DNA from: Acidobacteriota bacterium
GTDB taxonomy: Bacteria; Acidobacteriota; Thermoanaerobaculia; Gp7-AA8
Reading direction: 5' to 3'
Length of the DNA stretch: 60,093 nt
Assembly (NCBI GenBank): GCA_039931435.1
Contig: JBDTRY010000003.1
Coordinates: forward strand, 1-60,093
Shown here: positions 4,196 through 21,931 of the stretch, piece by piece
Layout of the letters: each line of letters starts with the position of its first letter
Position numbering within the stretch: position 1 is the stretch's first letter
Position numbers and translations under genes: made by a program
The notes under the pieces: model-generated
Seen by the model: the letters and a program-made list of their open reading frames with translations, nothing else
What the model was told of the DNA's origin: nothing
Database searches by the model: none

Positions 4196-4516
4196 ATGAG
4201 AATACGCTTTGTGTCCCTGGCAGCACTGACTTTCGTGATGACATTGCCGGCAATCGCCGCAGGCCCGGACGGGGCCGCACTCTTCAAGAAGTCGTGCGTA
4301 AGCTGCCATGGCGCCGACGGCGCCGGACAGACTACGATCGGCAAAAAGCTGAAGATGCGCGATCTTCGCTCGCCCGAAGTCCGGAAACAGACCGACATCG
4401 AGCTGATGAAGATCATCGCCGGAGGGAAGGAAAAAATGCCGGCGTACGGGCAGAAGATGTCGACGCCCGAGATCCAGGCGGTGATCGCTTACATTCGCAC
4501 ACTCAAAAGCGACTGA
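4196..4516 (+). CDS. Monoheme class I cytochrome c (periplasmic)
   Basis: Signal peptide, CVSCH, distal Met in KMPAY, RBS AAGGAG. Confidence 0.92.
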   Translation: MRIRFVSLAALTFVMTLPAIAAGPDGAALFKKSCVSCHGADGAGQTTIGKKLKMRDLRSPEVRKQTDIELMKIIAGGKEKMPAYGQKMSTPEIQAVIAYIRTLKSD

Positions 4517-4545
4517 AAAAGCGTCCCAACCGCAAGTCGTATCTT

Positions 4546-4573
4546 CGGCGAGGATCCCCTGGGGATCCCGCCG
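4546..4573. terminator. GC-rich hairpin between convergent cytochrome c and mtrB-like genes
   Basis: CGGCGAGGATCCCCTGGGGATCCCGCCG imperfect inverted repeat; no clear U-tract. Confidence 0.4.
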
Positions 4574-4594
4574 GCTTGATGGCACTGAAACGAT

Positions 4595-6535
4595 TCAGGG
4601 GTGCCAGCGGAGGTACACGCCGTAGCGGCTGGCATCGAACTTTCCGTATGACGGAGAGGGTTCGTCATATTTGTCGCGATCCCATTCGACCGCGACCCCT
4701 GTCTTCGACTTGAAGTCGTACGTGAGGCGAAGGCGATAGCGGTCCATGTCGAAGGGAGTCGTTCCGCTATTCTCGAATCGTCCCAGGCTGGTGTCGAGTG
4801 AGAACGGGCCGCGCAGGAAGCTCACGCCGCCTTCCCGCGCTTTGCCGTTTTCGCTATGAACCGACTCGTCGATGCTGAAGTTTTCCGGATGCCGGAAGCT
4901 GATGTTGCTGTCAGCTCGGAACTGCGAGAGGGATCCCCGCAGCCGCAACCAGGCCCTCGGCGCCACTTCAACGTCGCCGCTATATTGGCGGATTCGCGCA
5001 TCGTAACCGGCCTCGGGCCGGTCGTTGCTTTGATTGGTGCGCTCCGCGGTGAGGCCGGCGCGGAAGAAGTCCTTCGGCGAACTCCACGCTCCGCGAACGC
5101 GGACGCGATCACGATCGAGAAAATCAGTCCGAAAGACGGGATTGTCAGCATTGTCGGTGCGCCAGGCCGCGCCGAGCATGAGGCCGGACTGTCTAAACGT
5201 GCCGCTGACATCGAACGTATGCACGCGTCGGTCGAACTGGCCTTCCTGAGCGCCCGGCACAACGATTTCCGAGAGGTCCGGCGAAACCTTGACGTCCTGT
5301 TTCGATTCCCGATATTCACCACGAAGAGCAAAGGGTCCCAGGGCCCGTGCGGACACTGAGGCGTTGAGGACATCCTCGTTGCGGTCCAGGGAGCTGGACG
5401 CCTTCAGGATGGTCTCGAGGTCGCGCCGGTCTACCCCTCCGAAGGTGATGCTCTGAAGAAAAATCGTGGTGATGAGCGCTGAGCCGTCCAGCTCGCGATG
5501 CTCTTTCTGAAAACCAGCGGACACGTCGACGTTCGGATATACGGTGATTTCCGCCCGCCCGCCTCCGCGCCAGGTGGTGTTTTTTGCCGAGGAGCTGCCT
5601 TGCTCAGAGATCCCCGTGAAGAAGCGGCTGATGGGAAATGAAATGAACGTCCCGGCCGCGTTCTCGCTCTCGCTGCCGTCGGAGTCAGCGGCGAAGCGGA
5701 CGTAGTTGCCGATCAGGCGGATGCGCGTCAGTGGCTGGCCCGTGATGTAGAAATTCGTAAAGGGTGTGTCGACGTCGGTGCGGTCGGTGCGGCTGATGGT
5801 CTGGGCGCTGACGGGTTGGTCGAGGATGGATCCGGGATTGTTGCCGGCTCCCGCTCCGGAAGCGAGCGAGAGTGAATCAGTTCCACGAAAACTTCGCCAG
5901 CCCTGCGTCAGCTGACCCTGGACAGATCCGAAGTGAAATGATGCGCCGGCCCGGAGCTCGCGGTCCCGTTCCTTCAGATTGTTACTGAGGCGGAACTCGT
6001 CCTGCCCGAGGTTGTACGTTGTTGTTCCGGGACCATGGTTGTCGTTCCATGTGTAGCCGACGAACGGTACGATGGCTCGGTCCGGCAGCAGTTCCAGATC
6101 GACGTCGAGCATTCTGCGCGTGCGTTCGTAGGTGTGCTGTCCCGGGACGATACCCTCACCAAGCAGGGGATTTGCGAATCCGGGCAACGCACTGAATGCG
6201 TTTGTGGAGCGATACCCTACGCGCAGGTGATAGCGGCGGCTCTTTTCTGCTTCGATGCGAAGCGAGCCGGCCGGACCGGCTCCAAGGTCGCTGACATCGA
6301 CGCGGAAGCGGTCCATGAACGTGGTCCTGCCACTGAAATCGGACGTGGCCAGAGTGAAGTTGCGGATGAGCAGGCCGTCCCGCTCGTTGATCTGGGTTCG
6401 GTACATGTCCTCACTGCCTTTGAGATCGAGCCAGCGGTAGCCGATCTCGAGATCGAACGGCACCGTTTGCGCCTGGGCAGTGAAGGCGACCGCAACGACC
6501 GTTGCAGACAGCAATGTGGTGAGGATTCGTCTCAT
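4595..6535 (-). CDS. MtrB/PioB-like outer-membrane beta-barrel porin
   Basis: Signal peptide, alternating beta-strand pattern, C-terminal YGVYLRWHP, directly downstream of an MtrA-type decaheme. Confidence 0.8.
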   Translation of the reverse strand: MRRILTTLLSATVVAVAFTAQAQTVPFDLEIGYRWLDLKGSEDMYRTQINERDGLLIRNFTLATSDFSGRTTFMDRFRVDVSDLGAGPAGSLRIEAEKSRRYHLRVGYRSTNAFSALPGFANPLLGEGIVPGQHTYERTRRMLDVDLELLPDRAIVPFVGYTWNDNHGPGTTTYNLGQDEFRLSNNLKERDRELRAGASFHFGSVQGQLTQGWRSFRGTDSLSLASGAGAGNNPGSILDQPVSAQTISRTDRTDVDTPFTNFYITGQPLTRIRLIGNYVRFAADSDGSESENAAGTFISFPISRFFTGISEQGSSSAKNTTWRGGGRAEITVYPNVDVSAGFQKEHRELDGSALITTIFLQSITFGGVDRRDLETILKASSSLDRNEDVLNASVSARALGPFALRGEYRESKQDVKVSPDLSEIVVPGAQEGQFDRRVHTFDVSGTFRQSGLMLGAAWRTDNADNPVFRTDFLDRDRVRVRGAWSSPKDFFRAGLTAERTNQSNDRPEAGYDARIRQYSGDVEVAPRAWLRLRGSLSQFRADSNISFRHPENFSIDESVHSENGKAREGGVSFLRGPFSLDTSLGRFENSGTTPFDMDRYRLRLTYDFKSKTGVAVEWDRDKYDEPSPSYGKFDASRYGVYLRWHP

Positions 6536-6546
6536 CTCAGCCTCGC

Positions 6547-7557
6547 CTACTTCAGCAGTTGCGGATCGCGGTTGGAGCCGTGGACGGCAACGTGACAGGT
6601 CGTGCAGTTCTGAAAACGCGGGCTGCTGAGGTTATGAAACGACGGCGGTTGGGACCCCAGCGTATCGCCACCGATGGGCGAATGACATTCGATGCAGAGC
6701 TGCGCGACCGTAGCTCGTTTGAGCTGTTTCGGGTTCGAGGAACCGTGCGGCTCATGGCAGGTCATGCAGTCCCCGGCGGCCAGCGCGCCGTGCTGGAAAA
6801 CAAAGGGGCCACGCTTATCGGCATGGCAGGACAGACAGGGCAGCTCACCGGCACGGGTCCTGCGCAGGCTTTCTCTCCCCGGCATTCCGTGCGGCTCGTG
6901 GCACGATGAGCATTCCATTCCGCCCCGCCCGATCCGGTGAGCGAAGGGCTTGTTGCGCATCGAAGCTACCTGGGTCATGTGGCATGTGTCGCAGAGGGCC
7001 ATCTCCCGTTTTACCAGCAGATGCGGCGAGTGCGGGTCCGCAGCGTGAATGGCGTGGCAGGTCAGGCAATTGACCGCCGTTGAATTCGCGTGCACGCCCG
7101 CGTGACGGGAGACCTGGTCGGTGCTGACGTCGTGACAGGACAGGCAGGTTTTGTTCGCGCCCGTCACTCCCACCGGTTTGTAGATCTTGTCCGTTTCGCC
7201 ACCGCTCTCGATATGCGCTTGGCCGTCACCGTGACAGGTCTCACAGACCGCATTGGGAATCTCGCCGTCTTTCACCTTGCCATGACCATGCGGGTTCGAG
7301 CCGAACGTGGCCATGGCGTCATGGCACTGCGTGCAGGCAGGGAGCGCTTCCGCTTCACCAGCAGAAGCCGGCGTCGCTTCGGGAGTCGCCTCCGGCGAAG
7401 CCTCGGGCGAGGGCTGTTCGGCGGGCGCGGCCGTCGTGGTTTGCGGCTGTTCCGTGGGAGTGGGAGCGGGAGTTGTGGATTGCGGACCGCTGGCGCACAG
7501 CCCCGGCACGGCGAGACAGAGCACGAACGCGAGGGGCCCGATCCAACGGTGTCTCAT
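6547..7557 (-). CDS. MtrA/DmsE-family periplasmic decaheme cytochrome c
   Basis: 10 CxxCH counted; KRGPFVFQH and CHxxHGSN motifs. Start reassigned to ATG 7557 (MRHRWIG, RBS AGGAG). Pro/Thr/Glu-rich linker follows the signal peptide. Confidence 0.92.
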   Translation of the reverse strand: MRHRWIGPLAFVLCLAVPGLCASGPQSTTPAPTPTEQPQTTTAAPAEQPSPEASPEATPEATPASAGEAEALPACTQCHDAMATFGSNPHGHGKVKDGEIPNAVCETCHGDGQAHIESGGETDKIYKPVGVTGANKTCLSCHDVSTDQVSRHAGVHANSTAVNCLTCHAIHAADPHSPHLLVKREMALCDTCHMTQVASMRNKPFAHRIGRGGMECSSCHEPHGMPGRESLRRTRAGELPCLSCHADKRGPFVFQHGALAAGDCMTCHEPHGSSNPKQLKRATVAQLCIECHSPIGGDTLGSQPPSFHNLSSPRFQNCTTCHVAVHGSNRDPQLLK

Positions 7558-7575
7558 TTTTACTCCTGGACGCTG

Positions 7576-7599
7576 TGGGGGGACCTTGCGGTCCCCCCA
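7576..7599 (-). promoter_or_regulatory. Intra-operon stem-loop between mtrC-like and mtrA-like genes
   Basis: Perfect 10-bp stem TGGGGGGACC/GGTCCCCCCA, GCAA tetraloop on the transcribed strand, no U-tract. Confidence 0.55.
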
Positions 7600-7610
7600 T
7601 GCGCTCGACT

Positions 7611-9752
7611 CTATCGGGCGTGAACGCGCTCCACCGACCAGTCCTTGCCGGTGCCGTGGCAGGTTGCACAGGCTTCGGCGGGAGTGGTGCCTCCGGGGAA
7701 GGTGACCGTATTCAGGAACGCATGTGCGGCCGCATCTCTGTTGTCGTGGCAGCCCAGACAGGAAGCTGTGGCCGGACCCTGCGGACTGAAGTAGTCGCGA
7801 AGGGTGGTGACGGATCCGATCCTGGTGGGAAGAGGCAGCGTGTACGAAGTGCCGACGTGGCATTTCGCGCAATTGCGGAGATCACCAGGGAAGCGCACTT
7901 CGTTGAAGTTGTTCCGGCTGCCGCCGAACCCATAAATGGTGAAGTCCTGCGTCAGTTCCTCACCTTTATGAATCTTGTGGATCATCCGGTTGAAGGAGAT
8001 GGACTCGGCCGGTCCCTCCGTCGCCGGCCGCTGGGACTGATCGCCCTCGGTCGGATTGTGGCAGATGACACACTCCTCGGTGTTCATTCGCTGACCACCG
8101 TGAACTGCCAGCCGGTTGTGGCACTGGTTGCACTGTGCTGTCGAGACCACCATGCGGCGTGGGTCCACCGCCCCGGTCACGGCTACGTACTTGATGGGAT
8201 TGAAGGCCGCTTCCCGGACGGCAATGTCGGCCTTGCCGTCGGCGCGTTTCAGCGAGACGTTGCGGTAGATGTCGGCGCTGACCGTCCAGGTTCCACTGGC
8301 GTCGGCCGGTAGCGCATTGTTGAAGGTGTAGGAGGTGGTCCCTGTGGCCGCGTCGAAGACGGCTTTTGCCAGCGCGCTCTCGCGGAAGTACTTCGAGTAG
8401 CTTGAGGTCGGTCCACCAACGATGGGCGCGAACGTGGAGAGCTTCGTGCCATCGACCGCCGTTCCATCACCGTTCGTGATTTTGAACACGACCGTAGGCT
8501 TCTTGCCGGCGGCCATGTCGCTCACGCTGACGATCGTGGCCGAGATTCCCTTGAGCTGTTTCGATTTTTCAGGAATCGTATGCGCACCCTTGATGGAAGC
8601 GTCGAACTCCTGGCCGCTGTCAGGAATGTGGCAGGAGGCGCAGGCGCTGTCGTTCAACTGCGGGCCGCCCGGGTGATTTATCCCGGTGACCCAATCGATG
8701 TCGTCGTGGCACGAGCCGCACGCGGCGCGGCTGGGATAGGTGTACCAGGCGTTCGATTGCGCTCCCTTATTGTTCGGATCCGAGCCTTCGTGGCAGGTCG
8801 CGCAATTACGGATGTCCTGAGGGAAGGCCACGGTCGAGAAATCCACAACCGTCTGATTGAAGCCGATGATCTGGTAGGGAGTGCCGGCGATTACGCTGGG
8901 GAGGTTCTCGCCGCGGTGGATCTTGTGGGCCATGACCTTCATGTCCACTGTGTTGCCCGTATCAGGATCGGTGGTCTGCGGCTGATGGCAAAGCGCGCAC
9001 AACTTCACGTCCTGCCGGGCGCCGCCATGAGCGGAAAGCGGATCGTGGCAGCTGTTGCAGGTCGTGGCGGTGCGCATCTTGTCCCATGTCTCAGTGACCG
9101 GGGTGCCGTCCGGACGGAAGTCATATTCGACGTTGGCGACGTAGCTCTTTTTCAGTTCTTCGTCGATCCCCGGGACTGCGTTGAGCGCGCGTGTGGCGTA
9201 GATGCCGAGCGTATGGGTCTTCGTCACATCGAAGCCCGCGGGGAGTGCCGTTTTGAATGTGTATTTGACGTGCCCGGTCTCCAGGTCCATAAAGGTTCCC
9301 CCCGCGTCTGTGCCGGCCTGCATTGCGGACACGCCGGGATGGGGGCTGGACGGCGGGGTCGTCTGCGTCCGTACGGTGTACGACGTGTATTGCCGCGTCG
9401 CAGGGTCGTACCACGCCAGGATGAAGCTGATGGAGATCGCTCCCGGAGTGATCTTGCCGAGGCGGTCGAGCGGCTGATCGAGGGAATCCGTGATCGTGAG
9501 ATCGACCACCGGTCTGCGGTCGGAGCCGATCACGACGGAATTGACCTTGATCTTCAAACCCGGGCGGATGAATTCAATGGACTCCGGTGACAGGAATGAC
9601 TCGATCTCCGTTGAGGCAAACCCAGTCCTGTTCGGGTCCGACGGAGGCGCAGCCCCACGTCCCCGGCCCGTGGTCTCAGTGGCCAGCAGCGTGCTCGCGA
9701 ACAGCGCGGCCATCGATACCACGAGAACGGCGCGGTTCATCCCTGACTTCAT
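7611..9752 (-). CDS. OmcA/MtrC-family decaheme cytochrome c
   Basis: 10 CxxCH in two blocks of five, each preceded by a heme-free domain; LSAHGG/LAVHGG and MxHKIH motifs; start ATG 9752 after GGAGG. Confidence 0.9.
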   Translation of the reverse strand: MKSGMNRAVLVVSMAALFASTLLATETTGRGRGAAPPSDPNRTGFASTEIESFLSPESIEFIRPGLKIKVNSVVIGSDRRPVVDLTITDSLDQPLDRLGKITPGAISISFILAWYDPATRQYTSYTVRTQTTPPSSPHPGVSAMQAGTDAGGTFMDLETGHVKYTFKTALPAGFDVTKTHTLGIYATRALNAVPGIDEELKKSYVANVEYDFRPDGTPVTETWDKMRTATTCNSCHDPLSAHGGARQDVKLCALCHQPQTTDPDTGNTVDMKVMAHKIHRGENLPSVIAGTPYQIIGFNQTVVDFSTVAFPQDIRNCATCHEGSDPNNKGAQSNAWYTYPSRAACGSCHDDIDWVTGINHPGGPQLNDSACASCHIPDSGQEFDASIKGAHTIPEKSKQLKGISATIVSVSDMAAGKKPTVVFKITNGDGTAVDGTKLSTFAPIVGGPTSSYSKYFRESALAKAVFDAATGTTSYTFNNALPADASGTWTVSADIYRNVSLKRADGKADIAVREAAFNPIKYVAVTGAVDPRRMVVSTAQCNQCHNRLAVHGGQRMNTEECVICHNPTEGDQSQRPATEGPAESISFNRMIHKIHKGEELTQDFTIYGFGGSRNNFNEVRFPGDLRNCAKCHVGTSYTLPLPTRIGSVTTLRDYFSPQGPATASCLGCHDNRDAAAHAFLNTVTFPGGTTPAEACATCHGTGKDWSVERVHAR

Positions 9753-9854
9753 TCGAGCCTCCATAAACGGCCTCTGGCTTCCATTTTCACTTTTGGAGCG
9801 TTTGGAGCGTATTGTATCCGAAGTGGCCCGTCGCTGCCCGCCAACACGCACACA

Positions 9855-9870
9855 TGTGACTGCCGTCACT
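9855..9870. promoter_or_regulatory. CRP/FNR-family-like site upstream of the mtrC-like gene
   Basis: TGTGA-N6-TCACT; TACAAT -10-like hexamer on the minus strand at 9811-9816. Confidence 0.4.
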
Positions 9871-10030
9871 TCAGCAGGTGAGTGACAACAACTCTGGCTC
9901 ACCAGGAATGGCGATATATTAGAAAGCCTGTCTGGCTCGCAGTCGCACGGTTCTTGTTCTCATTTTCTCATTCCCATCCCGGCCGTTTCTGCTCCGCTTT
10001 GTCAAAACGACTAAAGAAAGGCTTTACCTC

Positions 10031-10594
10031 ATGAGCGCAGATCAGCAGCAATCACAAATGTCACCCAAGCTCGCGTTCCTCCTGGGAGCCGGGACAGCGG
10101 TGGTCCTGGCGTTGATCGTAGTCTTCGCAATGAGAGATACGCGTCCGGACTCTTCGTCGGCTGATGCTGGTTCGCCTTCAGTGAACAGATCGGTGGCGCT
10201 CCCATTCGAAACGAGCGCCGGAACTACGAGCGGAGCAATCGATCCCGCTCTGAACGCTGATCAGCCTGGCGTGATCTCCGGCACGATTCTTCTTGACGAG
10301 GCCGCGGCGAAGACCGTCTCCGGAAAAGTGATCGTGTTCGTCATCGCCCGCGCCGGCACCGGCAAAGGGCATCCCGTCTTTGCCAAGCGTCTGGACGTGA
10401 CCTCGTTTCCGGTGGCGTTCTCGCTCGGCGCCCGCGACTCGATGATGGCCCAGCCGCCGTCCGATCACCTGCGGCTGGAGGCGCGGATCGACCGAGACGG
10501 CGATGCCATCACCCGGGAGGCGGGTTCGCCCTCGGCAACCATCGAGTCCGTGCCTCTCGGCGCTCACGACGTTACGCTGAAGTTGCGGCTCTGA
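10031..10594 (+). CDS. Membrane-anchored protein with CcmI/CycH C-terminal Ig-like domain
   Basis: N-terminal TM helix; ISGTI...VFVIARA...PVFAKRL...FPVAFSL...DSMM...EARIDRDGDA matches the CcmI C-terminal pattern; no TPRs. Confidence 0.65.
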   Translation: MSADQQQSQMSPKLAFLLGAGTAVVLALIVVFAMRDTRPDSSSADAGSPSVNRSVALPFETSAGTTSGAIDPALNADQPGVISGTILLDEAAAKTVSGKVIVFVIARAGTGKGHPVFAKRLDVTSFPVAFSLGARDSMMAQPPSDHLRLEARIDRDGDAITREAGSPSATIESVPLGAHDVTLKLRL

Positions 10595-10682
10595 CGTTTC
10601 ACCAATGCTCGAAAGCGCCGATTGCCCCGATCTGCTCGAAACCACGATTACCGGTGGTCTCGCCATCCCGAAGGAGTAACGA

Positions 10683-12164
10683 ATGAACGACGCCCCACGG
10701 AAACCGAGTCTGTCCCGGAACGTCATCAGTGCCATCGGCGCATTGATCGTGTTCGTCGCTCTGATGAACACGATCTTCCTGATCTATATAGACAGCCGGC
10801 AGACTCATGGAAGCCCGTACCTGGGTATTCTGGCCTGGATCGTCGGTCCCGCCATTCTGTCTTTCGGACTCATTGTCTACATGGCCGGACTGCTGATCGA
10901 GAGACGCCGCCGTCGTATGCGGGCGCCGGATGACATTCCGCAATACCCGGCTATCGACCTGAACGTCCATCGAACACGAATGATCGTGGCCAGTATCTTT
11001 GCCGGCGTCATCCTCTTCGTCACCGCCAGCGTCATCGGCAGTTTTCAGGCCTTTCACTACACCGAATCGGACGAATTCTGCGGAACGGCATGTCATCAGC
11101 CGATGCATCCTGAGAACATCGCTCATCAGATCTCACCACACGCCAGGGTCGCTTGCGTTGCCTGTCACGTGGGAGGGGGAGCGGAGTGGTACGTCCGTTC
11201 AAAAATCAACGGCACCCATCAGCTCATGGGTGTGATCACAGGCAACTACAAACGTCCCATCGCCACGCCGATCAACAATCTCCGGCCGGCGCGGGACACC
11301 TGCGAGCAGTGTCACTGGCCGGAGAAAAACTTCGGAGATCAACTGAAGGTCTTCAGCCACTACCAGTACGACGAGCAGAGCACGCCAACGGAAGTGCGTC
11401 TCCTGATCCACGTTGGAGGCGGTAGCCCCGCCACGGGTGTGGCCCCCGGCATTCACTGGCACATGAATCTCGCAAACAAAATCGACTATGTCGCTGTGGA
11501 TCCTCAGCGTCAGGACATTCCATGGGTTAGGATGACCGACCGCAACGGCAAAGTCACGGATTACGTTCGAGAGGATTCGAAGGTGACGCCGGCGCAGATT
11601 GCAAACGCGCGGCAGATGGACTGTTTGGACTGCCACAGCCGTCCGGCCCATAACTACCTCTCACCAGACCGTGCCGTGGACCGGGCTCTGCTCACGGGAT
11701 CGATCGATCGCTCGCTGCCCTACGTCAAGCAGCAGGCCGTGAACATTCTCTCGAAGAACTATGGATCGACAGCGCAGGCAGTGAAGACCATCGGTAGGGA
11801 CTTCCCCGCCTACTACAGCAAGACCTACCCGGCCGTTTACGCTGCCAGGCGAGCTTCCGTGGACCACTCCATGAAAAGCCTTCAACGGATCTTCCAGTTC
11901 ACACGCTTCCCTGAGATGCGCGTCGACTGGCGGACACACCGGAACAACCTCGGTCACATGTACTCGCTCGGTTGTTTTCGCTGCCACGACGACCAGCACG
12001 TAAGCAAGGACGGCAGGCGAATCAGCAAAGAATGCTCGATCTGCCACGAAGTGCTGAGCGCTCCTGAAGGGAAAACGGCTGAGTTCCAGCATCCCGTGGA
12101 CCTGGGAGACCTCCGCGACATGGTCTGCACCGATTGCCACACCGGCGGAGATATGACCCAGTAG
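10683..12164 (+). CDS. ImcH-like NapC/NirT-family membrane multiheme cytochrome c (putative quinol dehydrogenase)
   Basis: Three N-terminal TM helices, YTESDEFCGTACH (CX3CH) plus six CxxCH = 7 hemes, 493 aa. Confidence 0.82.
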   Translation: MNDAPRKPSLSRNVISAIGALIVFVALMNTIFLIYIDSRQTHGSPYLGILAWIVGPAILSFGLIVYMAGLLIERRRRRMRAPDDIPQYPAIDLNVHRTRMIVASIFAGVILFVTASVIGSFQAFHYTESDEFCGTACHQPMHPENIAHQISPHARVACVACHVGGGAEWYVRSKINGTHQLMGVITGNYKRPIATPINNLRPARDTCEQCHWPEKNFGDQLKVFSHYQYDEQSTPTEVRLLIHVGGGSPATGVAPGIHWHMNLANKIDYVAVDPQRQDIPWVRMTDRNGKVTDYVREDSKVTPAQIANARQMDCLDCHSRPAHNYLSPDRAVDRALLTGSIDRSLPYVKQQAVNILSKNYGSTAQAVKTIGRDFPAYYSKTYPAVYAARRASVDHSMKSLQRIFQFTRFPEMRVDWRTHRNNLGHMYSLGCFRCHDDQHVSKDGRRISKECSICHEVLSAPEGKTAEFQHPVDLGDLRDMVCTDCHTGGDMTQ

Positions 12165-12189
12165 AAATAACCGCTGGGAAGCGCGGCCT

Positions 12190-12430: not shown

Positions 12431-12492
12431 TAGGAACTGAACGGCTCCTCAGACCCCGCTACTTTGCGAGCCGGTTGAAGACCACTTCTGAT

Positions 12493-13100: not shown

Positions 13101-13128
13101 AAACATCAAACTCTGAAATGATGGCTAC

Positions 13129-13434: not shown

Positions 13435-13518
13435 CAATGACTCCTCTTTCGTTTTATATTCAAACATTCTTGCCCCACACTGTATTTCGTCGGCAGGTGA
13501 TTAAACACGGCAGATTCA

Positions 13519-13686
13519 CTAGTGGCGTGTATTGGATGAATGGGTACCAGATGACGCCGGAATCGGCGACGTGAGCTAGGCGCGCCGACGCAAGCATAGC
13601 GGCTCCTATGCTGAGGAGGCGCAACAACGCTCACGGCGTCGAGACCAAGTCAAGGTGGTACCCATTTGTCCAATACACGCCACTAC
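13519..13686. mobile_element. MITE-like element, copy 1
   Basis: Terminal inverted repeats TAGTGGCGTGTATTGGA...TCCAATACACGCCACTA; near-identical inverted copy at 28523-28689; no credible ORF. Confidence 0.8.
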
Positions 13687-14060
13687 GGCCTGATTACCGA
13701 CGCCGATGGTCGGCTGGCAATCGTTCCTGCGCCGTCGGGTGTCTATTTGCCCGGCGGTGGGAGCAACGAATCAGAGGATGCGGAACAGACAGTCATGCGC
13801 GAGATTCGCGAGGAGTGCGGCCTGTTAATCTAACCTGGCGTTTGGCGCCGCGCTGCCATCGACCGGTCCCTGGCCGCCGCGGAACGCACAACTTTTGAGA
13901 AACGCTTCATGTTCTTCGACGTGCTCGCGATTGGGCTATCCAATGGTCAAGCTGAGGCCGACCATCTCCTGGAATGGGCTAACGCTGCTGGCGCAGCCGG
14001 CCGCGTTCGCCCGCGAGCCATCGGTGGGCGATCACAGAGTGGTTGGCCACGTTCGCGCCG
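13684..14060 (+). pseudogene. Nudix hydrolase pseudogene, 5' end cut at the MITE
   Basis: YGLITDADGRLAIV...LPGGGSNESEDAEQTVMREIREECG (Nudix box), TAA at 13831, later EADHLLEW and frameshifted SHRWAI. Confidence 0.75.
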
Positions 14061-14165
14061 GACACGCCTGCCGGCATCAGAGCATCGACCGTGTGACGAT
14101 CGTTGAACCTGACCAGCGATCTGCGGATGCTCGTTTCGCCCCTTTATTTTGATTCGCGGGCGGCC

Positions 14166-14927
14166 TCACCACGCCACGAGCGCAGGCTGCTGCTGCGAGA
14201 GCCAGTCCTGAAGGCCTTCTTTCGTGTCGACAAGGAGCATGCCGCGCATGCGGTAGTGGCCGAGCCCGCATAGCTGCGCGCAGGCGATCTCCCACTGTTC
14301 GCCGTTGTTGGTGCGCGTTGGCGTGAAGTGAATGGGAATCTCCATGCCTGGAACGGCATCCTGGTTGACGCGCATGACCGGAAGCTTGAAGCTGTGAATG
14401 ACGTCCTTTGACGAGATGTGAATGACCACCGGACGATTCACCTCCAGGTGAAGCTCGTTCAGGGTGTTCAGGTCGTCCGTGGCATGCGGATCCTTCGCAT
14501 CGAGCCCGAGGGGATTATCCACCGAGACGAGGGTCACATCCCGCCTGCCGAAGATGCCGTCGGGACCCGGATAGTGGACATTCCACGCAAACTGCTCGGC
14601 CACGATCTGGATCTCCAGCGGCTTCACATTGCCGGCGAGCGGCTGAGCCCAACGCGTCCATGCGGGGATCGAGTATCCGAACAGGTCAACGAGCTCGACG
14701 GCGAACACCGCGATGATGAGATAGACCGGCCAACGCGAGCGCATTCCCCCGTAACTCACGGGCTGGTGCCCACCGGCGCGAAAACGAATCAGCACGTAGA
14801 TGATGTATGCCGCCCAGAAAACGAACAGAATCACGATCATCCAGTGGATTTCGATCAGCAACTTGTCGATTTCCCATCCGTGGCGGGAGTAGTCGGGCGG
14901 CATGTGTCCGAGCAGAAAGTGTTTCAA
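14166..14927 (-). CDS. coxB: Cytochrome c oxidase subunit II (CuA)
   Basis: Two TM helices, EQFAW, DVIHSF, CAQLCGLGHYRM; probable TTG start overlapping the upstream TGA. Confidence 0.9.
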   Translation of the reverse strand: MKHFLLGHMPPDYSRHGWEIDKLLIEIHWMIVILFVFWAAYIIYVLIRFRAGGHQPVSYGGMRSRWPVYLIIAVFAVELVDLFGYSIPAWTRWAQPLAGNVKPLEIQIVAEQFAWNVHYPGPDGIFGRRDVTLVSVDNPLGLDAKDPHATDDLNTLNELHLEVNRPVVIHISSKDVIHSFKLPVMRVNQDAVPGMEIPIHFTPTRTNNGEQWEIACAQLCGLGHYRMRGMLLVDTKEGLQDWLSQQQPALVAW

Positions 14928-15202
14928 GGCCGACCCCCTTCGATCAACACGAACGGCTCCGGTTTCATGGAGAACTCCCGTGATCGGCGCCAAAAGCTCC
15001 AGAAGAGGGTGGCGAATCCGATCTGGACGAGCCCGACGACAGCCAGGAGAAAGAGAATGGCGTAGTTCATCGACTTCGCCGCCTGGGAGCCGGCGGCCGC
15101 CCCGAAACAGACCGGGCAGGCCATTGCGGCGGGCGCGAACACCAGCAGTGCCACGGCGGCGAGCGCGGCGACGGTCGGGATGCGCAGGGCCGGTCTGGTC
15201 AT
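14924..15202 (-). CDS. Small oxidase-operon membrane protein with CPVC motif
   Basis: Signal peptide, ACPVCFG, one TM helix; coupled to both neighbours by overlaps. Confidence 0.7.
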   Translation of the reverse strand: MTRPALRIPTVAALAAVALLVFAPAAMACPVCFGAAAGSQAAKSMNYAILFLLAVVGLVQIGFATLFWSFWRRSREFSMKPEPFVLIEGGRP

Positions 15203-15396
15203 AGATTCATCAGCTTTCGGAAAACTCGTCCCGCATACGCGACGAGAGCGACCCCACAGAACACGAACATGATCGCCAGAACGAGCGCGCTGCTGTTCCT
15301 GGTGGCGAGAAACTCTCGAAAGCCCCAGACGGCCACGAAGACCGACAAGCCGATCGACACGGTAATGAAGACGATGTGAAAGTGACGAAGCCCCAT
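15199..15396 (-). CDS. Small two-TM oxidase-operon protein
   Basis: MGLRHFHIVFITVS..., two hydrophobic helices, ATGA overlap with the next gene. Confidence 0.7.
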   Translation of the reverse strand: MGLRHFHIVFITVSIGLSVFVAVWGFREFLATRNSSALVLAIMFVFCGVALVAYAGRVFRKLMNL

Positions 15397-15400
15397 GCTG

Positions 15401-15808
15401 TCACCGTCCGATGGCATCGACGAAGCCCTGCCACGGTCCCCAGAGGAGAAAGGAAAAAAAGAAGAGCGTCACGCCGAGAACCGAATAGATCAGTTTCTTC
15501 TCCGAGAGTAGATGCATGAAGAATCCGGCAACCAGAAATCCTTTCGTGCAGGCGATGACCAGGGCGATGGCGATGGCGGTGTGCACCGGCATTTTCAGTC
15601 CGTAGCACGCCCAGACCGTGAGCGCGGTCAGCGCGGCGAGGGCGCCAAAGACGATGAGATAGACGCGCATCTCCCGCCGGATCTCCTCGGGAGTGTGATG
15701 AAGATTCGGGTCGTGCACTCCGCCGTGGGTATGCTGATCTTCAGCGCGGCTCGCCGGCAGCGGCATGCCGTCGGACGGGGCGTTCGGTTGAATCACTTGT
15801 TCGCTCAC
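15401..15808 (-). CDS. Cytochrome c oxidase subunit IV family protein
   Basis: YLIVFGALAALTALTV...KGFLVAGFFMHL; GTG start after AGGAGG. Confidence 0.85.
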   Translation of the reverse strand: MSEQVIQPNAPSDGMPLPASRAEDQHTHGGVHDPNLHHTPEEIRREMRVYLIVFGALAALTALTVWACYGLKMPVHTAIAIALVIACTKGFLVAGFFMHLLSEKKLIYSVLGVTLFFFSFLLWGPWQGFVDAIGR

Positions 15809-15816
15809 CGGTCCTC

Positions 15817-16440
<624 letters not shown>

Positions 16441-18306
16441 TCAGACCTCCTTCTGTGCCACGGTCGTCTTCGGCAACATCCCGCCGCTCAGGGCAGGGGC
16501 CGGACGCAACTCGAGATTCTGGGGAAGATAGTCCGCAGTCTGGTAGTCCGGCGAGTTGTACTCGTAAGGACCGCGGTAGACGATCGGCAGCACCTCGAAA
16601 TTCCCGTGGGCCAGCGGCGGTGAGGTGGCGGCCACCCATTCGAGCGTGGTGGCTTGCCACGGATTGTCGTCGACGTTCTTCTTGTGCCGCGCGGCCTGGG
16701 CCACGTTCCAGACGAAATTCACGATGAACGGAATCTGCGCGGCGAGGAGGCACCAGGCGGAGATAGAGATGAACGGATTCGTCGCTGCGGCCGCCGCCTT
16801 CGCATGCGCGTACTGCAACCCGCCGTCATACATGCGTCGCTGCACCCCGGCCAGACCCTGGAGAAACATCGGAAGGAACACGCCGTTCATGAACAGGAAC
16901 GAGCCCCAGAAGTGCACTTTTCCCAGAGTGTCGTTCAGCTTTCGCCCCGTGACTTTCGGGAACCAGTAGTAGATGCCTGCGAACAAGGCGAAGATCGTCC
17001 CCGGCGCTACGATGTAGTGAAAGTGGGCGATGACGTAGTAGGTGTCGTGCAGATGGAGGTCCGTGGTTGCCAGGCCAAGGGGAAGCCCGGTCAGCCCGCC
17101 GAGCCCGAACATGGGAAGGAAGGCGACGGCAAAATACATCGGGGTCGTCATGCGTATCGAGCCACCCCAGAGAGTGACGAGCAACACCGTCAGGATGATC
17201 ACCGAGGGGATGGAGATGATCATCGTCGTGGTCTGGAAGAAGCCGCTGACCATCGCTCCCATGCCGGTGATGAACATGTGGTGCGCCCAGACCACGAAGG
17301 ACATGAAGCCGATCCAGAGCACCGAGTAGACCAGCCAGCGATATCCCCATATGGGCTTGCGGGTGTTGTTGGCGATGACCTCGGTGATGATTCCGAGCGC
17401 CGGCAGGATCAGGACGTATACCTCGGGATGAGCCAGGAACCAGAACAGGTGCTGCCACAGCAATGGATTTCCACCGCCGGCGACCGCAAGTCTTTCACCG
17501 CTGACAACCAGGTCTGCCGGCAGGTAGAAGCTCGTCCCCGCCACGCGATCCATGAACTGCAGGATGGCGCCCACCTCGAGTGCGGGAAAGGCGAGCAGCA
17601 GCAGGAACGATGTGACGAACTGGGCCCAGACGAAGAACGGCAGGCGCATGAAGGTCAGCCCCTCGGCCCGAAGCTGCACGATCGTAACGATGAAGTTGAT
17701 CGAGCCGAGGAGAGAGGATGTGATCAGGAAAACCATTCCCACGATCCAGAAGGTCTGACCACGGGATGCAATATCCGCGAGCGGAGGATAGGAGGTCCAG
17801 CCTGAAGCGGCGGTTCCCAGCGGAAGGAAAAAGCTCGCCAGCATGATCATGCCGCCGGTGAAGTACGCCCAGTAGCTGGCCATGTTGAGCTTGGGGAATG
17901 CCATGTCCGGCGCGCCGATCTGCAGCGGCACGATGTAGTTTCCAAAGGCGCCGACCGCCAGCGGGACAATGGCCATGAAGACCATGATCGTGCCGTGCAT
18001 CGCGCCCAGCTGGTTGTAGCCCTCGGGAAGCATGATTCCGCCCGGCGCGCGCGACTCACCGAGAATTCTGAACAGACGGAATGCATGTCCGGGCCAGCCG
18101 AGCTGCAGACGCATCAACAGCATCAGGCTGAAGCCGAATAGCAGAAATACGAGCGCCGTCACTCCATACTGAATCCCGATCCACTTGTGATCCGTGGAGA
18201 ATACATAGCGGCGAATCCAGGATAGATGATGCTGCCCTCCGGCTTCGACTGCCGGTGCCCCGCCGCCGGAAGGCGAGAGCGCGGGGTCATGGGGTGTCTC
18301 AGACAT
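16441..18306 (-). CDS. coxA: Heme-copper oxidase subunit I, A family
   Basis: STDHK, HGTIMVF, PDMAFP, HPEVY, WAHH, HDTYYVIAHFHY, RR. Confidence 0.95.
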   Translation of the reverse strand: MSETPHDPALSPSGGGAPAVEAGGQHHLSWIRRYVFSTDHKWIGIQYGVTALVFLLFGFSLMLLMRLQLGWPGHAFRLFRILGESRAPGGIMLPEGYNQLGAMHGTIMVFMAIVPLAVGAFGNYIVPLQIGAPDMAFPKLNMASYWAYFTGGMIMLASFFLPLGTAASGWTSYPPLADIASRGQTFWIVGMVFLITSSLLGSINFIVTIVQLRAEGLTFMRLPFFVWAQFVTSFLLLLAFPALEVGAILQFMDRVAGTSFYLPADLVVSGERLAVAGGGNPLLWQHLFWFLAHPEVYVLILPALGIITEVIANNTRKPIWGYRWLVYSVLWIGFMSFVVWAHHMFITGMGAMVSGFFQTTTMIISIPSVIILTVLLVTLWGGSIRMTTPMYFAVAFLPMFGLGGLTGLPLGLATTDLHLHDTYYVIAHFHYIVAPGTIFALFAGIYYWFPKVTGRKLNDTLGKVHFWGSFLFMNGVFLPMFLQGLAGVQRRMYDGGLQYAHAKAAAAATNPFISISAWCLLAAQIPFIVNFVWNVAQAARHKKNVDDNPWQATTLEWVAATSPPLAHGNFEVLPIVYRGPYEYNSPDYQTADYLPQNLELRPAPALSGGMLPKTTVAQKEV

Positions 18307-18340
18307 GCACCTGTCCTCCTAGTTGCGCGTTCGCATTGTT

Positions 18341-18359
18341 TGTCACGCCCAGCGTGACA
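18341..18359. promoter_or_regulatory. Perfect palindrome in the cox / cyc2-like divergent region
   Basis: TGTCACG-N5-CGTGACA about 35 bp upstream of coxA. Confidence 0.4.
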
Positions 18360-18551
18360 CGCAGGCGCATCCGCCGGATCACCCGGCGGCACTCGGACCG
18401 CCGTCGGGGCGTGCAACGCGGCGGTGCAAAAAATTTGCGGTTTTCCATTGCTAAAACAGGCAGGTAGAATATAGTAGATGAAATTGGATTCTGGGGTCAA
18501 CGAACTTTTTGTGAATCGGCATCATCACCGTCAAGGAGATGGGAATCACGC

Positions 18552-19250
18552 ATGTTCAAAAAAATAAGTCACGTCCTGGCATTGGCTGTCTGTTTCGTAT
18601 TCACCACTGTCGCGGCTCATGCGGCGACGCTCGTGGCACACGTAGAGTTGAAGAGTCCGGTGCATCCCGCGCACATGATCAACACCGCGGCCGATCCGTA
18701 CTGCAATACGGTTCACAAGACCGACAAGCTCATGACCGAGGACCAGATGGCGAACCCGAACGGAACGATGGGCAATACGTTCGTCTTCATCAGTGAAGGG
18801 GTCACCGGCAACTACGCGCCCCCCAAGACTCCGGTCGTCCTGGACCAGCAGGGATGTCATTACGTCCCGCATGCGTTCGGCGTCATGGCCGGGCAGCCCA
18901 TCGTGATCAAAAACAATGACGCGACTCTGCACAACATCCACCCCCTCCCGAAAGTGAATACGCCGTTCAATATCGGCATGCCGATGAAGGGCATGACCCA
19001 GACCCGCGTGTTCCCCAAGCCGGAAATGCCGTTCCACATCAAGTGCGACGTTCATCCCTGGATGTCGGGGTTCGTCGGCGTGTTCGCCAATCCGTTCTTC
19101 GGTGTGTCGAACGACAAGGGAATCGTGGAAATCGACAATCTCCCTGCCGGGACGTACACGGTGGAATCCTGGCACGAGCGGTTGGGACCGAAGTTTCAGA
19201 AAGTCACCGTCGGAGGTTCTGACCGCAAAGAGGTCACCTTTACGTATTAA
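18552..19250 (+). CDS. Periplasmic cupredoxin-like / carboxypeptidase-regulatory-like protein
   Basis: Signal peptide, DQQGCHYVPH, LHNIH, KCDVHPWM (possible His/Cys/His/Met Cu site), PAGTYTVESWHE. Confidence 0.75.
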   Translation: MFKKISHVLALAVCFVFTTVAAHAATLVAHVELKSPVHPAHMINTAADPYCNTVHKTDKLMTEDQMANPNGTMGNTFVFISEGVTGNYAPPKTPVVLDQQGCHYVPHAFGVMAGQPIVIKNNDATLHNIHPLPKVNTPFNIGMPMKGMTQTRVFPKPEMPFHIKCDVHPWMSGFVGVFANPFFGVSNDKGIVEIDNLPAGTYTVESWHERLGPKFQKVTVGGSDRKEVTFTY

Positions 19251-19341
19251 AGCCCTCGTGAACTGCTCCTGGTAAGAGCGCGGCCATACCGGCCACGCTT
19301 CCGCTCCATCAATCGATCTCGGGTATAAAGGAGACGAACCG

Positions 19342-20640
19342 ATGCGTTGCGTTACTCGTCCATGGGCACGGTGTTGGGGCCTTCTGCTCCTGCTGCTGTT
19401 CCTCATTCCCACTCCAGCCTTCTCCATCCCTGCATTCGCACGCAAGTACCAGGTCCGATGCACGGCCTGCCACGAGGCCTGGCCCATGCTGAACGACTTC
19501 GGACGTGCTTTCCGGGACAATGGATACCAGATGATGATGGGCAAGGACGGTCCGACCGCCACTCCGGTGGGCTACTGGCCGGTTGCCTTCCGCCTCGTTC
19601 CGAGCTTCGAGCGGGACACGATCAACCACCAGGAGACCGACCAGGGCGTCAAGACGCTGACCACCAGCAATGGGTTTGGCGTCGGAGCCTTCGACGTCTT
19701 GAGCGCCGGCACGCTCGCTCCGAACATGTCATTCCTCTTCGTACCGGCCTACGAGGGGGGCGAGTGGGAGGTCGAATCCGCGTGGGTGCGCTTCGACAAT
19801 CTCGGGAAATCCTCCTGGCTCAACCTGAAACTGGGGCATCACGAACTGGATCTGCCCCGCTCGGCGCATCGACCCTTGAACCAGACAGGCGCCGGGTTTC
19901 TCGTCTACAGCTACCATCCACCGGGCTCCATCTCGGAATTCGACATGGGGGGCAACCAGGACGGCGTGGAATGGGTAGGCCACGACAAGGGGAGCCTCAA
20001 CCGCGCTGCGGTTTCACTGTTCAGTGTGGACGGATCGCCAGGTTCAAGGAGCGCATTCAACACTCCGGGCGTGTACTTCCACCTCATTCATGAGTTTCTT
20101 CCAAAAAGCCGCGTCGTCTCGGAGGCCAAGATCGGTGCCTTCGGCGCCGACGCCAGTTGGCCTACGACGTTCCTCACCTCGGACGGCGACCCGATCGAGG
20201 GCTCGGGAACTACGTTGAAGCATTCGACTCGGTACGGTCTCGAGGGACATGTTCTGTTCGGGCCGAATGTAACTCCCTTCCATGCCCTCGTGGTCCTTGC
20301 TCATGGGTCGGACAATCGCAATCTCATCGAGGGAGCGACGCGGAATGCCACGTGGGACGGAGGCTTTGTCGAGCTGGCCTGGACGCCCCGGCTGAAGACC
20401 ACGCCATTTTTCCGCTACGACTGGATCTCGAACGGGGACCAGTCAAATTCCGAGTTGGCGAGCAACGCAAACGATCAGACCCAATACACCATCGGCATCC
20501 GCCATACCCTGAACTACTCGACGCGGGCGGAGTATGCGTTGCACGGCGAGTACTCGGCGCTTCGAGCTCGAGGCCTGACGGCGGATGAGCCGACCGTCAC
20601 CTCTACCAGCCTTTTCTTCGGAGTTGATTTCGCTTTCTGA
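19342..20640 (+). CDS. Cyc2-like fused monoheme cytochrome-porin
   Basis: Signal peptide, IPAFARKYQVRCTACHEAWPMLNDFGRAFRDNGY, then a beta-barrel-like region ending in Phe. Confidence 0.8.
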   Translation: MRCVTRPWARCWGLLLLLLFLIPTPAFSIPAFARKYQVRCTACHEAWPMLNDFGRAFRDNGYQMMMGKDGPTATPVGYWPVAFRLVPSFERDTINHQETDQGVKTLTTSNGFGVGAFDVLSAGTLAPNMSFLFVPAYEGGEWEVESAWVRFDNLGKSSWLNLKLGHHELDLPRSAHRPLNQTGAGFLVYSYHPPGSISEFDMGGNQDGVEWVGHDKGSLNRAAVSLFSVDGSPGSRSAFNTPGVYFHLIHEFLPKSRVVSEAKIGAFGADASWPTTFLTSDGDPIEGSGTTLKHSTRYGLEGHVLFGPNVTPFHALVVLAHGSDNRNLIEGATRNATWDGGFVELAWTPRLKTTPFFRYDWISNGDQSNSELASNANDQTQYTIGIRHTLNYSTRAEYALHGEYSALRARGLTADEPTVTSTSLFFGVDFAF

Positions 20641-20650
20641 GGAGGATGCG

Positions 20651-21439
20651 ATGAAGAATTTCAACCGTCGATTGCTCCCCAGCGCACTGGCGTTGTTGCT
20701 TTCGGCAAGTTCGCTCCCAACGGCCGATGCTGTGGCTCCCCCCGGCGACCCGGTCCAGGGGAAAGTCGTCTACGACCGGTATTGCGTCTCCTGTCATGGT
20801 GTCGAGGGAGACGGCCGCGGAGAGGGTGCAGGCTACATCTTTCCCAAGCCACGTGACTTCCGGCAGGGAACTTTCAAGTGGCGCTCAACCCCGTCCGGGG
20901 CGCTTCCATCCGTTGCCGACCTCGACAAAACCATTCGCGACGGCTTGTACGGCACGAACATGCCCACCTGGTATGTTCTTGGCGAACGAAACCGGATGAA
21001 TGTCATCTCCTACATCATGACATTCTCTCCGCGGTGGCAGAGCGAAGAGATTCCTGCGGCGATCACGATCCCGGCGGAGCCGCCCTTGACCAGCGAATCG
21101 GTCGACGCTGGCCGCGCGCTTTTCGAAAAGCTTCAGTGCGCGCAATGCCACGGGGACGCAGGGAAAGGCGATGGGCCATCCTCGCATGAGCAGAGAAACG
21201 ACTGGGGTGATCCGATCACCCCTGCCGACCTCACCGTCGGCCATTTCAAAGGCGGGGGCACGCCGTCCGACATCTACCGCGTCTTCATGACCGGCCTGAA
21301 CGGTGCACCGATGCCGTCCTTCGCCGACTCCATCCAGCCGGCGGAAGCGTGGGACCTCGTTCATTTCATCGAGAGCCTCAGCGCTCACGCGGCACCCAAC
21401 CCGCAGTTCGGTGTCGATGGGGTGCCCATCCACCGCTAG
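20651..21439 (+). CDS. Periplasmic diheme class I cytochrome c
   Basis: RBS GGAGG, signal peptide, CVSCH...PRDF...MP and CAQCH...PADL...MP domains. Confidence 0.9.
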   Translation: MKNFNRRLLPSALALLLSASSLPTADAVAPPGDPVQGKVVYDRYCVSCHGVEGDGRGEGAGYIFPKPRDFRQGTFKWRSTPSGALPSVADLDKTIRDGLYGTNMPTWYVLGERNRMNVISYIMTFSPRWQSEEIPAAITIPAEPPLTSESVDAGRALFEKLQCAQCHGDAGKGDGPSSHEQRNDWGDPITPADLTVGHFKGGGTPSDIYRVFMTGLNGAPMPSFADSIQPAEAWDLVHFIESLSAHAAPNPQFGVDGVPIHR

Positions 21440-21930: not shown

Positions 21931-21931
21931 C

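Follow-up and report, generated by a model that had tools for sequence, protein, structure and literature searches.

An MtrCAB-type conduit with an ImcH-like partner and a rus-like Cyc2 module side by side on an acidobacterial contig, probably two independent respiratory modules

The stretch of DNA analysed here, called the window throughout, comprises 60,093 nucleotides of an Acidobacteriota genome (assembly GCA_039931435.1, contig JBDTRY010000003.1, our C3) that was assembled from a metagenome (4.3 Mb in 414 contigs, 82% complete). Between positions 4196 and 21439 it holds two sets of electron-transfer genes: an ImcH-like inner-membrane cytochrome with an MtrCAB-type outer-membrane conduit (module A, 4196-13467), and a Cyc2-like cytochrome-porin with a diheme cytochrome, a cupredoxin-like protein and a heme-copper oxidase (module B, 14166-21439). 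An earlier note, made from the sequence alone, had read both as one island for two-way extracellular electron transfer. The parts can be assigned by family or architecture and each module is conserved separately, whereas their adjacency is not conserved; we therefore regard them, with a probability of about 0.6, as two independent respiratory modules that are neighbours by chance in this assembly. For both modules we infer the direction of electron flow, the substrates and the carriers that would link the steps.

The locus and its heme motifs

Every gene named in the earlier note proved to be an open frame, and the inventory given there was found complete: eight intact cytochrome or porin genes, 32 heme motifs in seven c-type cytochromes (motifs counted in the translations), a copper protein and a full oxidase within 17 kb. 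The members other than cytochromes are a barrel of 646 amino acids (aa), a cupredoxin-like protein and a four-subunit heme-copper oxidase. The features are listed in order of position.

4196-4516, plus strand: monoheme cytochrome c with signal peptide, 106 aa, one CxxCH; Pfam Cytochrome_CBB3 and Cytochrom_C
4595-6535, minus strand: outer-membrane barrel, MtrB-like in fold only, 646 aa
6547-7557, minus strand: MtrA/DmsE-family decaheme cytochrome, 336 aa, ten CxxCH
7611-9752, minus strand: OmcA/MtrC-family outer-surface decaheme cytochrome, 713 aa, ten CxxCH
10031-10594, plus strand: membrane-anchored protein with an Ig_CycH-like domain, 187 aa; PF23892, E 3.1e-12
10683-12164, plus strand: ImcH-like heptaheme inner-membrane cytochrome, putative quinol dehydrogenase, 493 aa, six CxxCH and one CxxxCH
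12625-13008, minus strand: Rhodanese-domain protein with membrane anchor; Pfam Rhodanese, E 9.8e-10
13129-13467, minus strand: second monoheme cytochrome c, 112 aa, one CxxCH; Pfam Cytochrom_C
13518-13686, no strand: palindromic repeat resembling a miniature inverted-repeat transposable element (MITE), 167 bp, between the modules, at 33 genomic places
13666-13833, plus strand: truncated NUDIX gene fragment, open reading frame (ORF) of 55 aa; profile positions 10-58 of 134, E 4.2e-06
14166-14993, minus strand: oxidase subunit II (coxII), two hydrophobic stretches; Pfam COX2, E 4.4e-09
14924-15417, minus strand: two small membrane ORFs between coxIV and coxII, 92 and 72 aa, with hydrophobic stretches
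15401-15724, minus strand: oxidase subunit IV (coxIV); Pfam COX4_pro, E 1.3e-11
15817-16440, minus strand: oxidase subunit III (coxIII); Pfam COX3, E 2.3e-19
16441-18306, minus strand: heme-copper oxidase subunit I (coxI); Pfam COX1, 446.8 bits
18552-19250, plus strand: secreted cupredoxin-like protein with a CarboxypepD_reg-like part, 232 aa, C-x2-H-x2-M pattern
19342-20640, plus strand: Cyc2-like fused monoheme cytochrome-porin, 432 aa, signal peptide, one CxxCH at residue 40
20585-21439 (likely start 20651), plus strand: diheme cytochrome c, two CxxCH; Pfam Cytochrom_C in two stretches

Such clustering of heme motifs is far above chance, since the locus is the richest of 437 sliding 17.2-kb segments (32 motifs against a median of 0) and holds three of the four frames with at least four CxxCH in the assembly, which contains 165 CxxCH altogether (stop-to-stop frames of at least 80 aa). 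The sole other frame of this kind, at C12:6134-6799 on the minus strand, carries five motifs in 222 aa. GC content is flat along the stretch, at 0.57-0.64, showing no compositional signal of an island, and no tRNA genes were found in the window. The host had been supposed to be Acidobacteria-like, and the genome indeed shares its family with a metagenome-assembled genome (MAG) of the Thermoanaerobaculia (Acidobacteriota). The stretch is present in four public runs from three studies, and because these runs are rhizosphere and soil metagenomes the host is probably a neutrophilic soil heterotroph; neither a RuBisCO large subunit nor cytochrome bd was found in the 82%-complete genome.

An ImcH-like cytochrome linked to an MtrCAB-type conduit

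Both decahemes of module A fall into the families of the Shewanella conduit. The 713-aa protein scores 508.8 bits against TIGR03507 (OmcA/MtrC; cut-off 209.3) over model positions 5-672 of 672, matches PF22113 (MtrC/MtrF domains II/IV) in two stretches (E 9.4e-56) and finds MtrF first in the PDB (5.3e-36), followed by OmcA, UndA and MtrC. The 336-aa protein, whose frame extends to 7872 with a likely start at 7557, scores 210 bits against TIGR03508 (DmsE/MtrA; cut-off 192.2) and matches PDB 6r2q_A at E 5.1e-34. MtrC of Shewanella is a lipoprotein; in its relative here, by contrast, no lipobox ([LVI][ASTVI][GAS]C) was found in the first 80 residues.

The barrel resembles MtrB in fold and not in sequence. 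Its AlphaFold (AF2) model (predicted local distance difference test, pLDDT, 79; 26 DSSP strands) has as its top Foldseek match 6r2q_B, the MtrB chain of the Mtr complex (E 5.9e-15, template-modelling score, TM, 0.65, 10% identity), the remaining listed fold matches, mostly TonB-dependent and SusC-type transporters, reaching a TM of 0.50 at most. Against TIGR03509 (MtrB/PioB, NCBIfam) the protein gave no match even at E<=10 and only one of 16 orthologs touched the model (E 0.0019), while neither phmmer nor a profile of the 16 orthologs found the MtrB chain in the PDB. In a model of the complex the MtrA-like protein lies inside the barrel, with an interface score (ipSAE) of 0.90 versus 0.00 for the best of three controls, 412 contacts, agreement of the runs in at least 84% of contacts and a partner pLDDT of at least 81; when the tool was calibrated, 58 of 80 solved complexes reached the mark, as did 2 of 110 mismatched pairs. 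Since the Mtr complex has already been solved, passing this mark shows likeness, not binding, and the barrel is thus predicted to sheathe the MtrA-like decaheme. The name MtrCAB-like given to this cluster in the earlier note therefore stands for MtrC and MtrA, which lie above curated cut-offs, and for the barrel in its fold, but not for the barrel in its sequence.

Set beside Shewanella MtrCAB (6R2Q), the cluster shares both decahemes above their cut-offs, the gene order mtrC-mtrA-barrel and a 26-strand barrel with MtrB as its best fold match and MtrA modelled inside; it departs from that system in a barrel without detectable MtrB sequence similarity and in an inner-membrane partner that is ImcH-like, not CymA. 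An MtrCAB-type cluster in Acidobacteriota is known from Group 5 of Baker et al. 2022 (PMC8805035), found in Acidobacteriia (Bryobacterales and unclassified members). There, a tetraheme cytochrome lies downstream of mtrB and the sections cited place no inner-membrane quinone oxidoreductase near the genes, whereas the barrel gene of module A is followed by that of a monoheme cytochrome and the cluster is linked to an ImcH-like gene. The search of Baker et al. 2022 required an MtrB hit, which the barrel reported here would probably fail. Because this barrel resembles MtrB in fold alone, sequence searches demanding an MtrB match probably miss a whole clade of such conduits.

The heptaheme cytochrome at 10683-12164 had been named ImcH-like, an assignment that its architecture bears out. 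Three hydrophobic stretches (residues ~13-39, 45-73 and 95-124 by the crude Kyte-Doolittle method), CGTACH at residue 133 beside the third helix, CxxCH at 158, 207, 314, 431, 451 and 482, and a NapC/NirT N-terminal region (PF03264, residues 100-190, E 2e-11) give the exact architecture published for ImcH, namely three N-terminal helices, CX3CH next to the third, six CX2CH and likeness to NapC/NirT (PMC6295460, PMC4251993). In these respects, and in its length of 493 against 495-519 aa, the protein is like ImcH of Geobacter sulfurreducens (GSU3259). It also matches NrfH 2j7a_C at E 0.0011, and none of the 120 matches listed for it is named ImcH. Unlike in Geobacter, the gene lies beside an mtrCAB-like cluster; the 2018 survey (PMC6295460), in the sections cited, saw no adjacent mtrAB or mtoAB.

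The association of these genes is recurrent among relatives. In the host's family (124 genomes, which as kin are not independent, so that the counts are descriptive) an ImcH-like gene occurs in 68 and an MtrC-like gene in 62 genomes, both together in 57, MtrC-like without ImcH-like in five and ImcH-like without MtrC-like in 11. The two lie within 10 kb on one contig in 25 of the 57 genomes holding both; leaving out one unpublished genome (G112) changes these figures to 67, 61, 56 and 24 (of 123). The trio of MtrC, MtrA and barrel is kept in 15 of 17 Mtr loci, which were fetched around MtrC homologs in relatives, the other two being a paralog and a cut contig. This linkage of ImcH and Mtr seems not to be in two published surveys, since PMC6295460 and PMC8805035 report none in their accessible text; likewise, no imcH-mtrCAB linkage in Acidobacteriota was found described in the literature searched, where the supplementary lists of both surveys might include family members.

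Smaller genes complete module A. The monoheme cytochrome at 4196-4516 is a candidate periplasmic carrier of the module, and its homologs adjoin ImcH-like or Mtr genes in L026, L027, L028, L032 and contig C40 of G041. It is a paralog of the second monoheme at 13129-13467 (55% identity), of which a 64% identical homolog lies in the Mtr neighbourhood of G009. The same genome (locus L027) has a rhodanese homolog, 57% identical, upstream of its ImcH-like gene. The product of 10031-10594, with one hydrophobic stretch at residues 10-37, has a homolog in L026 only among the 17 Mtr loci.

Module A would serve outward extracellular electron transfer, a direction suggested by the presence of both MtrC and an ImcH-like partner. 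The ImcH-like heptaheme would draw electrons from quinol at the inner membrane, the small monoheme cytochromes c would ferry them over the periplasm, the MtrA-family decaheme in its 26-strand barrel would conduct them through the outer membrane, and the surface MtrC-family decaheme may finally reduce Fe(III) or Mn(IV) minerals or humics. The monohemes are probably the carriers, since further multiheme proteins are almost lacking from the assembly.

A rus-like Cyc2 module and its oxidase

The Cyc2-like protein reads SIPAFARKY, three residues, CTACH, three residues and PML. Keffer et al. (2021) give as unique to Cyc2 the motif AXPXFAR[Q/K][T/Y] ahead of CXXCH together with PXL 4 residues behind it; the window's protein starts the motif with S, the family consensus with A. 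Its structural model (pLDDT 70.6, 17 DSSP strand elements) shows a heme region of low confidence at the N terminus and, after it, a barrel, whose own strand number is uncertain and whose best fold matches are 16-strand porins including OprP (2o4v_A), the protein that Keffer et al. name as template for the Cyc2 porin. With signature motif, PxL and a porin-type barrel model all present, the Cyc2-like call of the earlier note is upheld. No Pfam or NCBIfam family matches the protein, a PDB sequence search with the family gave nothing relevant, all 935 homologs at E<=1e-5 are unnamed or "hypothetical", and a scan of metagenome contigs with the protein returned one 1.6-kb locus, without gene context.

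Among its partners, the diheme cytochrome has 6h5l_B as best PDB match (E 4.4e-57), and the Atlas model of the cupredoxin-like protein aligns at a TM of 0.95 to part of a 500-aa cluster called "cytochrome c oxidase subunit 2". Two further frames were tried as genes in this part, 18546-19562 and 15210-15608, both on the minus strand, and rejected; neither has a Pfam match and both overlap better-supported frames. The oxidase had been described as a full heme-copper enzyme, and with subunits I-IV matched by Pfam and the CuA ligand pattern H...C-x3-C-x3-H-x2-M in the coxII translation, which has no fused cytochrome c, it is a CuA-bearing A-type (aa3) oxidase. No Pfam family passes for the two small membrane ORFs at 14924-15417; they are kept at the same position in locus L043 with 51% and 62% identity. 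The genome holds two COX1 genes, the second on contig C14, so the oxidase of this locus is an extra one and looks like a dedicated enzyme in a heterotroph.

The module is widespread. We compared the best 80 of 588 relatives of the Cyc2-like protein in GTDB species genomes (tblastn, neighbours within 10 kb), which come mostly from Acidobacteriota MAGs (Thermoanaerobaculia, Vicinamibacteria, Terriglobia, Sulfotelmatobacter) and in a few cases from Eisenbacteria, Gammaproteobacteria, Hyphomicrobiales and Gemmatimonadaceae. Near Cyc2, homologs of the diheme are found at 76 of these loci, following Cyc2 at all 76, those of the cupredoxin-like protein at 74, of coxII at 55, of coxI at 52 and of coxIII at 50. 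The usual order in Terriglobia is Cyc2-diheme-cupredoxin-coxII-coxI-coxIII, while L043 has the same layout as the window. In L043, which comes from a Thermoanaerobaculia MAG and is the closest relative, the Cyc2 module is followed by another coxII-coxI pair and another cupredoxin-like gene (12161-15549), so that the oxidase part is duplicated there. A P-type (E1-E2) ATPase gene adjoins the diheme gene in the window (21932-23827, minus strand), and P-type ATPase homologs lie near Cyc2 at 12 of the 80 loci, perhaps as pumps for copper or another metal that work for the module. Another arrangement, in L044-L047, L050-L059 and L061, consists of a P-type ATPase, a cupredoxin-like gene, Cyc2, a diheme, ~3 kb of unidentified genes and another diheme; cox genes are missing from the surrounding 10 kb.

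These gene contents recall the rus operon of Acidithiobacillus, whose published order is cyc2-cyc1-cup-coxBACD. Module B shares with that of A. ferrooxidans (cyc2-cyc1-cup-coxBACD-rus) an outer-membrane monoheme cytochrome-porin, a cytochrome c with two hemes, a protein of the cupredoxin type and an aa3 oxidase of four subunits, and most of its Terriglobia relatives are collinear with it. It differs in that the oxidase genes diverge from cupredoxin-Cyc2-diheme and end with coxII, that the locus, to which the search was confined, shows no rusticyanin-like gene, that the diheme is not detectably of the Cyc1 type, and that the host is probably a neutrophilic soil heterotroph. By this likeness module B would run inward: the Cyc2-like cytochrome-porin would oxidise dissolved Fe(II) at the outer membrane, the diheme cytochrome c and the cupredoxin-like protein would pass the electrons on, and the dedicated second aa3-type oxidase would reduce O2.

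Conservation of the modules, their junction and the alternatives

Whether the two modules form one unit can be judged from their neighbourhoods elsewhere. Within 10 kb of Cyc2, a gene for MtrC, MtrA, the barrel or an ImcH-like protein turned up at 0 of the 80 loci; likewise, no cox, Cyc2, cupredoxin-like or diheme gene turned up within ~12 kb at any of the 17 Mtr loci. A full-length Cyc2 ortholog occurs in three of the 124 family genomes, the host's own, G054 (which is also L043 and G041) and G069. G054 carries the Mtr/ImcH cluster on C40 and its Cyc2 module on a separate 221-kb contig; in G069 they are on C180 and C150, respectively, and the genes after the oxidase are unrelated to those of the window. 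Among 40 sampled relatives, an MtrC-like gene is present in 20 and a more distant Cyc2-like gene in 12 (with the Cyc2 motif in nine of the 11 readable loci), and in none of the nine having both do they share a contig. The synteny check across Acidobacteriota that had been proposed thus found the adjacency of Mtr/ImcH and Cyc2/cox kept in no compared locus, and because the halves are conserved separately and are never adjacent elsewhere, the claim of an island is unsupported. The idea that one locus serves both directions survives in part: one cell does have both gene sets, whereas the single island is not supported by the 80 Cyc2 loci, the 17 Mtr loci and the separate contigs of G054 and G069. 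The earlier note would have given up its idea if the halves never co-occurred in related genomes, an objection that does not arise, since they occur together in three family genomes and in nine of the 40 sampled relatives.

No locus joining Mtr/ImcH and Cyc2/cox was found described in the literature searched, and PMC12442345 and PMC11245096 contain nothing that bears on it. Co-occurrence of MtrABC and Cyc2 in MAGs of Acidobacteriota is on record from a hot-spring survey (PMC9671151), with MtrABC in three such MAGs and in one a Cyc2 of Cluster 3. Sideroxydans lithotrophicus ES-1 is alike in having a porin-decaheme conduit and Cyc2 in the same cell; both are held oxidative there, in the text cited, whereas MtrC and the ImcH-like partner argue for reduction here. 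Judged by gene content, one cell can probably both reduce and oxidise iron.

The modules meet at the palindromic repeat and the NUDIX fragment. The repeat has terminal inverted repeats and gave 62 matches (both strands counted) at its 33 places; most copies are 90-98% alike, an older subfamily 77-80%, and in a comparison for target-site duplications all copies proved to be bounded by the same CTAG-type ends. Against Rfam it matched no family, two sub-threshold chance hits lying elsewhere. A second copy lies inverted at 28524-28690, and the two bracket a 14.8-kb segment that holds the oxidase/Cyc2 module. A different repeat is present as direct 170-nt copies at 25177-25346 and 29200-29369 (92% identity).

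The foremost alternative to chance neighbours in a real sequence is that the contig was misjoined via this repeat, its two sides belonging to the same population genome and to different neighbourhoods of it. In the public runs, which were compared as short Logan contigs, the contigs pile up on the repeat (depth 70-110 versus ~5 elsewhere) and end at 13517/13518 and 13685/13688 with several alternative flanks, which are the flanks of other copies in the same genome; none among the public pieces listed bridges 13518-13686. Eight of the 33 places are near contig ends, the inverted copy sits on the same contig, and synteny with relatives stops on either side, extending on the Mtr side to the rhodanese gene and the second monoheme (G009) and ending on the oxidase side right after coxII (~14190). 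On the other hand, 25 of the 33 places sit inside contigs, so that the assembler usually resolved the repeat, and the junction copy was assembled as a unique path because of private variants (C at position 13558 and an additional A at 13653, either one present in one of 18 aligned copies), spaced so that words or reads of 141-150 nt could tie both flanks. Both sides are also of similar depth in run X1 and ~97% alike in X5 (20 differences in 656 letters and 54 in 1943), which fits one genome, not necessarily one neighbourhood. A misjoin is therefore a serious but on the whole unlikely explanation, and we put the chance that the join at 13518-13686 is real at roughly three in four.

Just outside the locus, both ends carry apparent gene remnants: at 3071-4063 (minus strand) an ABC ATPase domain without membrane domain, and at 21445-21978 (minus strand) a frame whose C-terminal part resembles an ABC Walker B/H-loop and for which no Pfam family was found. 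These remnants hint at past rearrangement around the locus. Farther along, 29769-31133 (plus strand) codes for a protein of 454 aa that combines an Ice_binding-like domain with Ig domains of the He_PIG type.

A second alternative concerns function: the Cyc2-like module may be a general outer-membrane electron entry, or serve metal handling, on an alternative oxidase, and not be an iron oxidase at all. Keffer et al., in whose account Cyc2 of Mariprofundus PV-1 has been assayed for Fe(II) oxidation after heterologous expression, point to many cyc2 homologs outside known iron oxidisers; among MAGs of heterotrophic soil Acidobacteriota the family is spread very widely, and P-type ATPases recur near it. 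The intact Cyc2-specific motif, and a linkage to diheme, cupredoxin-like protein and aa3 oxidase that mirrors the experimentally studied rus operon, argue against this view, which we find rather improbable.

Still less probable is a reading built on the proposal with which the locus was first presented, namely that both halves form one functional, co-selected island that reduces acceptors anoxically and re-oxidises them with O2 over a shared monoheme pool. Both gene sets do lie within 17 kb, as the only multiheme cluster besides the five-motif frame on C12; the paralogous monohemes frame module A, one at its outer and one at its inner end; and of the 12 relatives that have a Cyc2-like gene, nine have an MtrC-like one as well. 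Yet the adjacency recurs in none of the comparisons (0/80, 0/17, 0/9 and, for the two other family genomes, 0/2), a gene fragment and a mobile repeat separate the halves, the Cyc2 module is patchy in the family in which Mtr/ImcH is common, and no shared regulator was seen. A special form of this idea, in which a MITE-mediated rearrangement joined an iron-reducing chain of Geobacter type (ImcH) and Shewanella type (MtrCAB) and a rus-like, iron-oxidising Cyc2/aa3 chain into a functional neighbourhood with a shared monoheme pool, is very doubtful; if true, a single soil acidobacterium could cycle iron privately across oxic and anoxic swings of the rhizosphere.

Equally improbable is that both modules run inward, the Mtr-like conduit oxidising solid Fe(II) minerals as Mto and Pio do and Cyc2 oxidising dissolved Fe(II), for although MtrAB homologs take part in iron oxidation in Rhodopseudomonas, Gallionella and Sideroxydans (PMC8805035), an organism with both an Mto and a Cyc2 pathway is described in PMC9731265 and the arrangement has been proposed for S. 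lithotrophicus ES-1, and although an aerobic oxidase adjoins, the locus has a conserved MtrC-family surface decaheme, its linked partner resembles ImcH, whose homologs the 2018 survey (PMC6295460), in the sections cited, reports in Fe(III) reducers only, and the 82%-complete genome yielded no RuBisCO large subunit.

Several observations weigh against two independent modules, one outward and one inward, and we have kept them in view. Mtr and ImcH-like genes are present in each of the three family genomes that hold the Cyc2 module, and the monoheme cytochromes could serve both modules. The outward direction has to reckon with Mto and Pio, relatives of MtrAB that run inward in iron oxidisers (PMC8805035), with a barrel that by sequence fails the MtrB/PioB family, and with an ImcH-like name given by architecture. 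On the inward side, the protein may belong to Cluster 3, of whose function Keffer et al. are most unsure among Cyc2 clusters 1-3; no Acidithiobacillus-named cytochrome is among the 25 PDB matches of the diheme; the cupredoxin assignment is weak, its plastocyanin and blue-copper PDB matches lying at E 0.02-0.38; and 25 to 28 of the 80 Cyc2 loci have no cox gene within 10 kb, some of their contigs being short.

Two independent modules that happen to be neighbours remain the reading we prefer, and the claim of a two-way island is of less importance, since no other assembly shows the adjacency and it is unverified. Newer are the linkage of ImcH and Mtr, the MtrB-like barrel of divergent sequence and the breadth of the rus-like module in Acidobacteriota. 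The first of these would amount to a hybrid pathway, given the physical linkage between the genes of an MtrCAB-type conduit and of an ImcH-like inner-membrane cytochrome. The last bears on a larger group of organisms: the rus-like module of Cyc2, diheme, cupredoxin and oxidase is very common in MAGs of soil Acidobacteriota, which are usually regarded as plain heterotrophs, and, if it is active, such bacteria may oxidise Fe(II).

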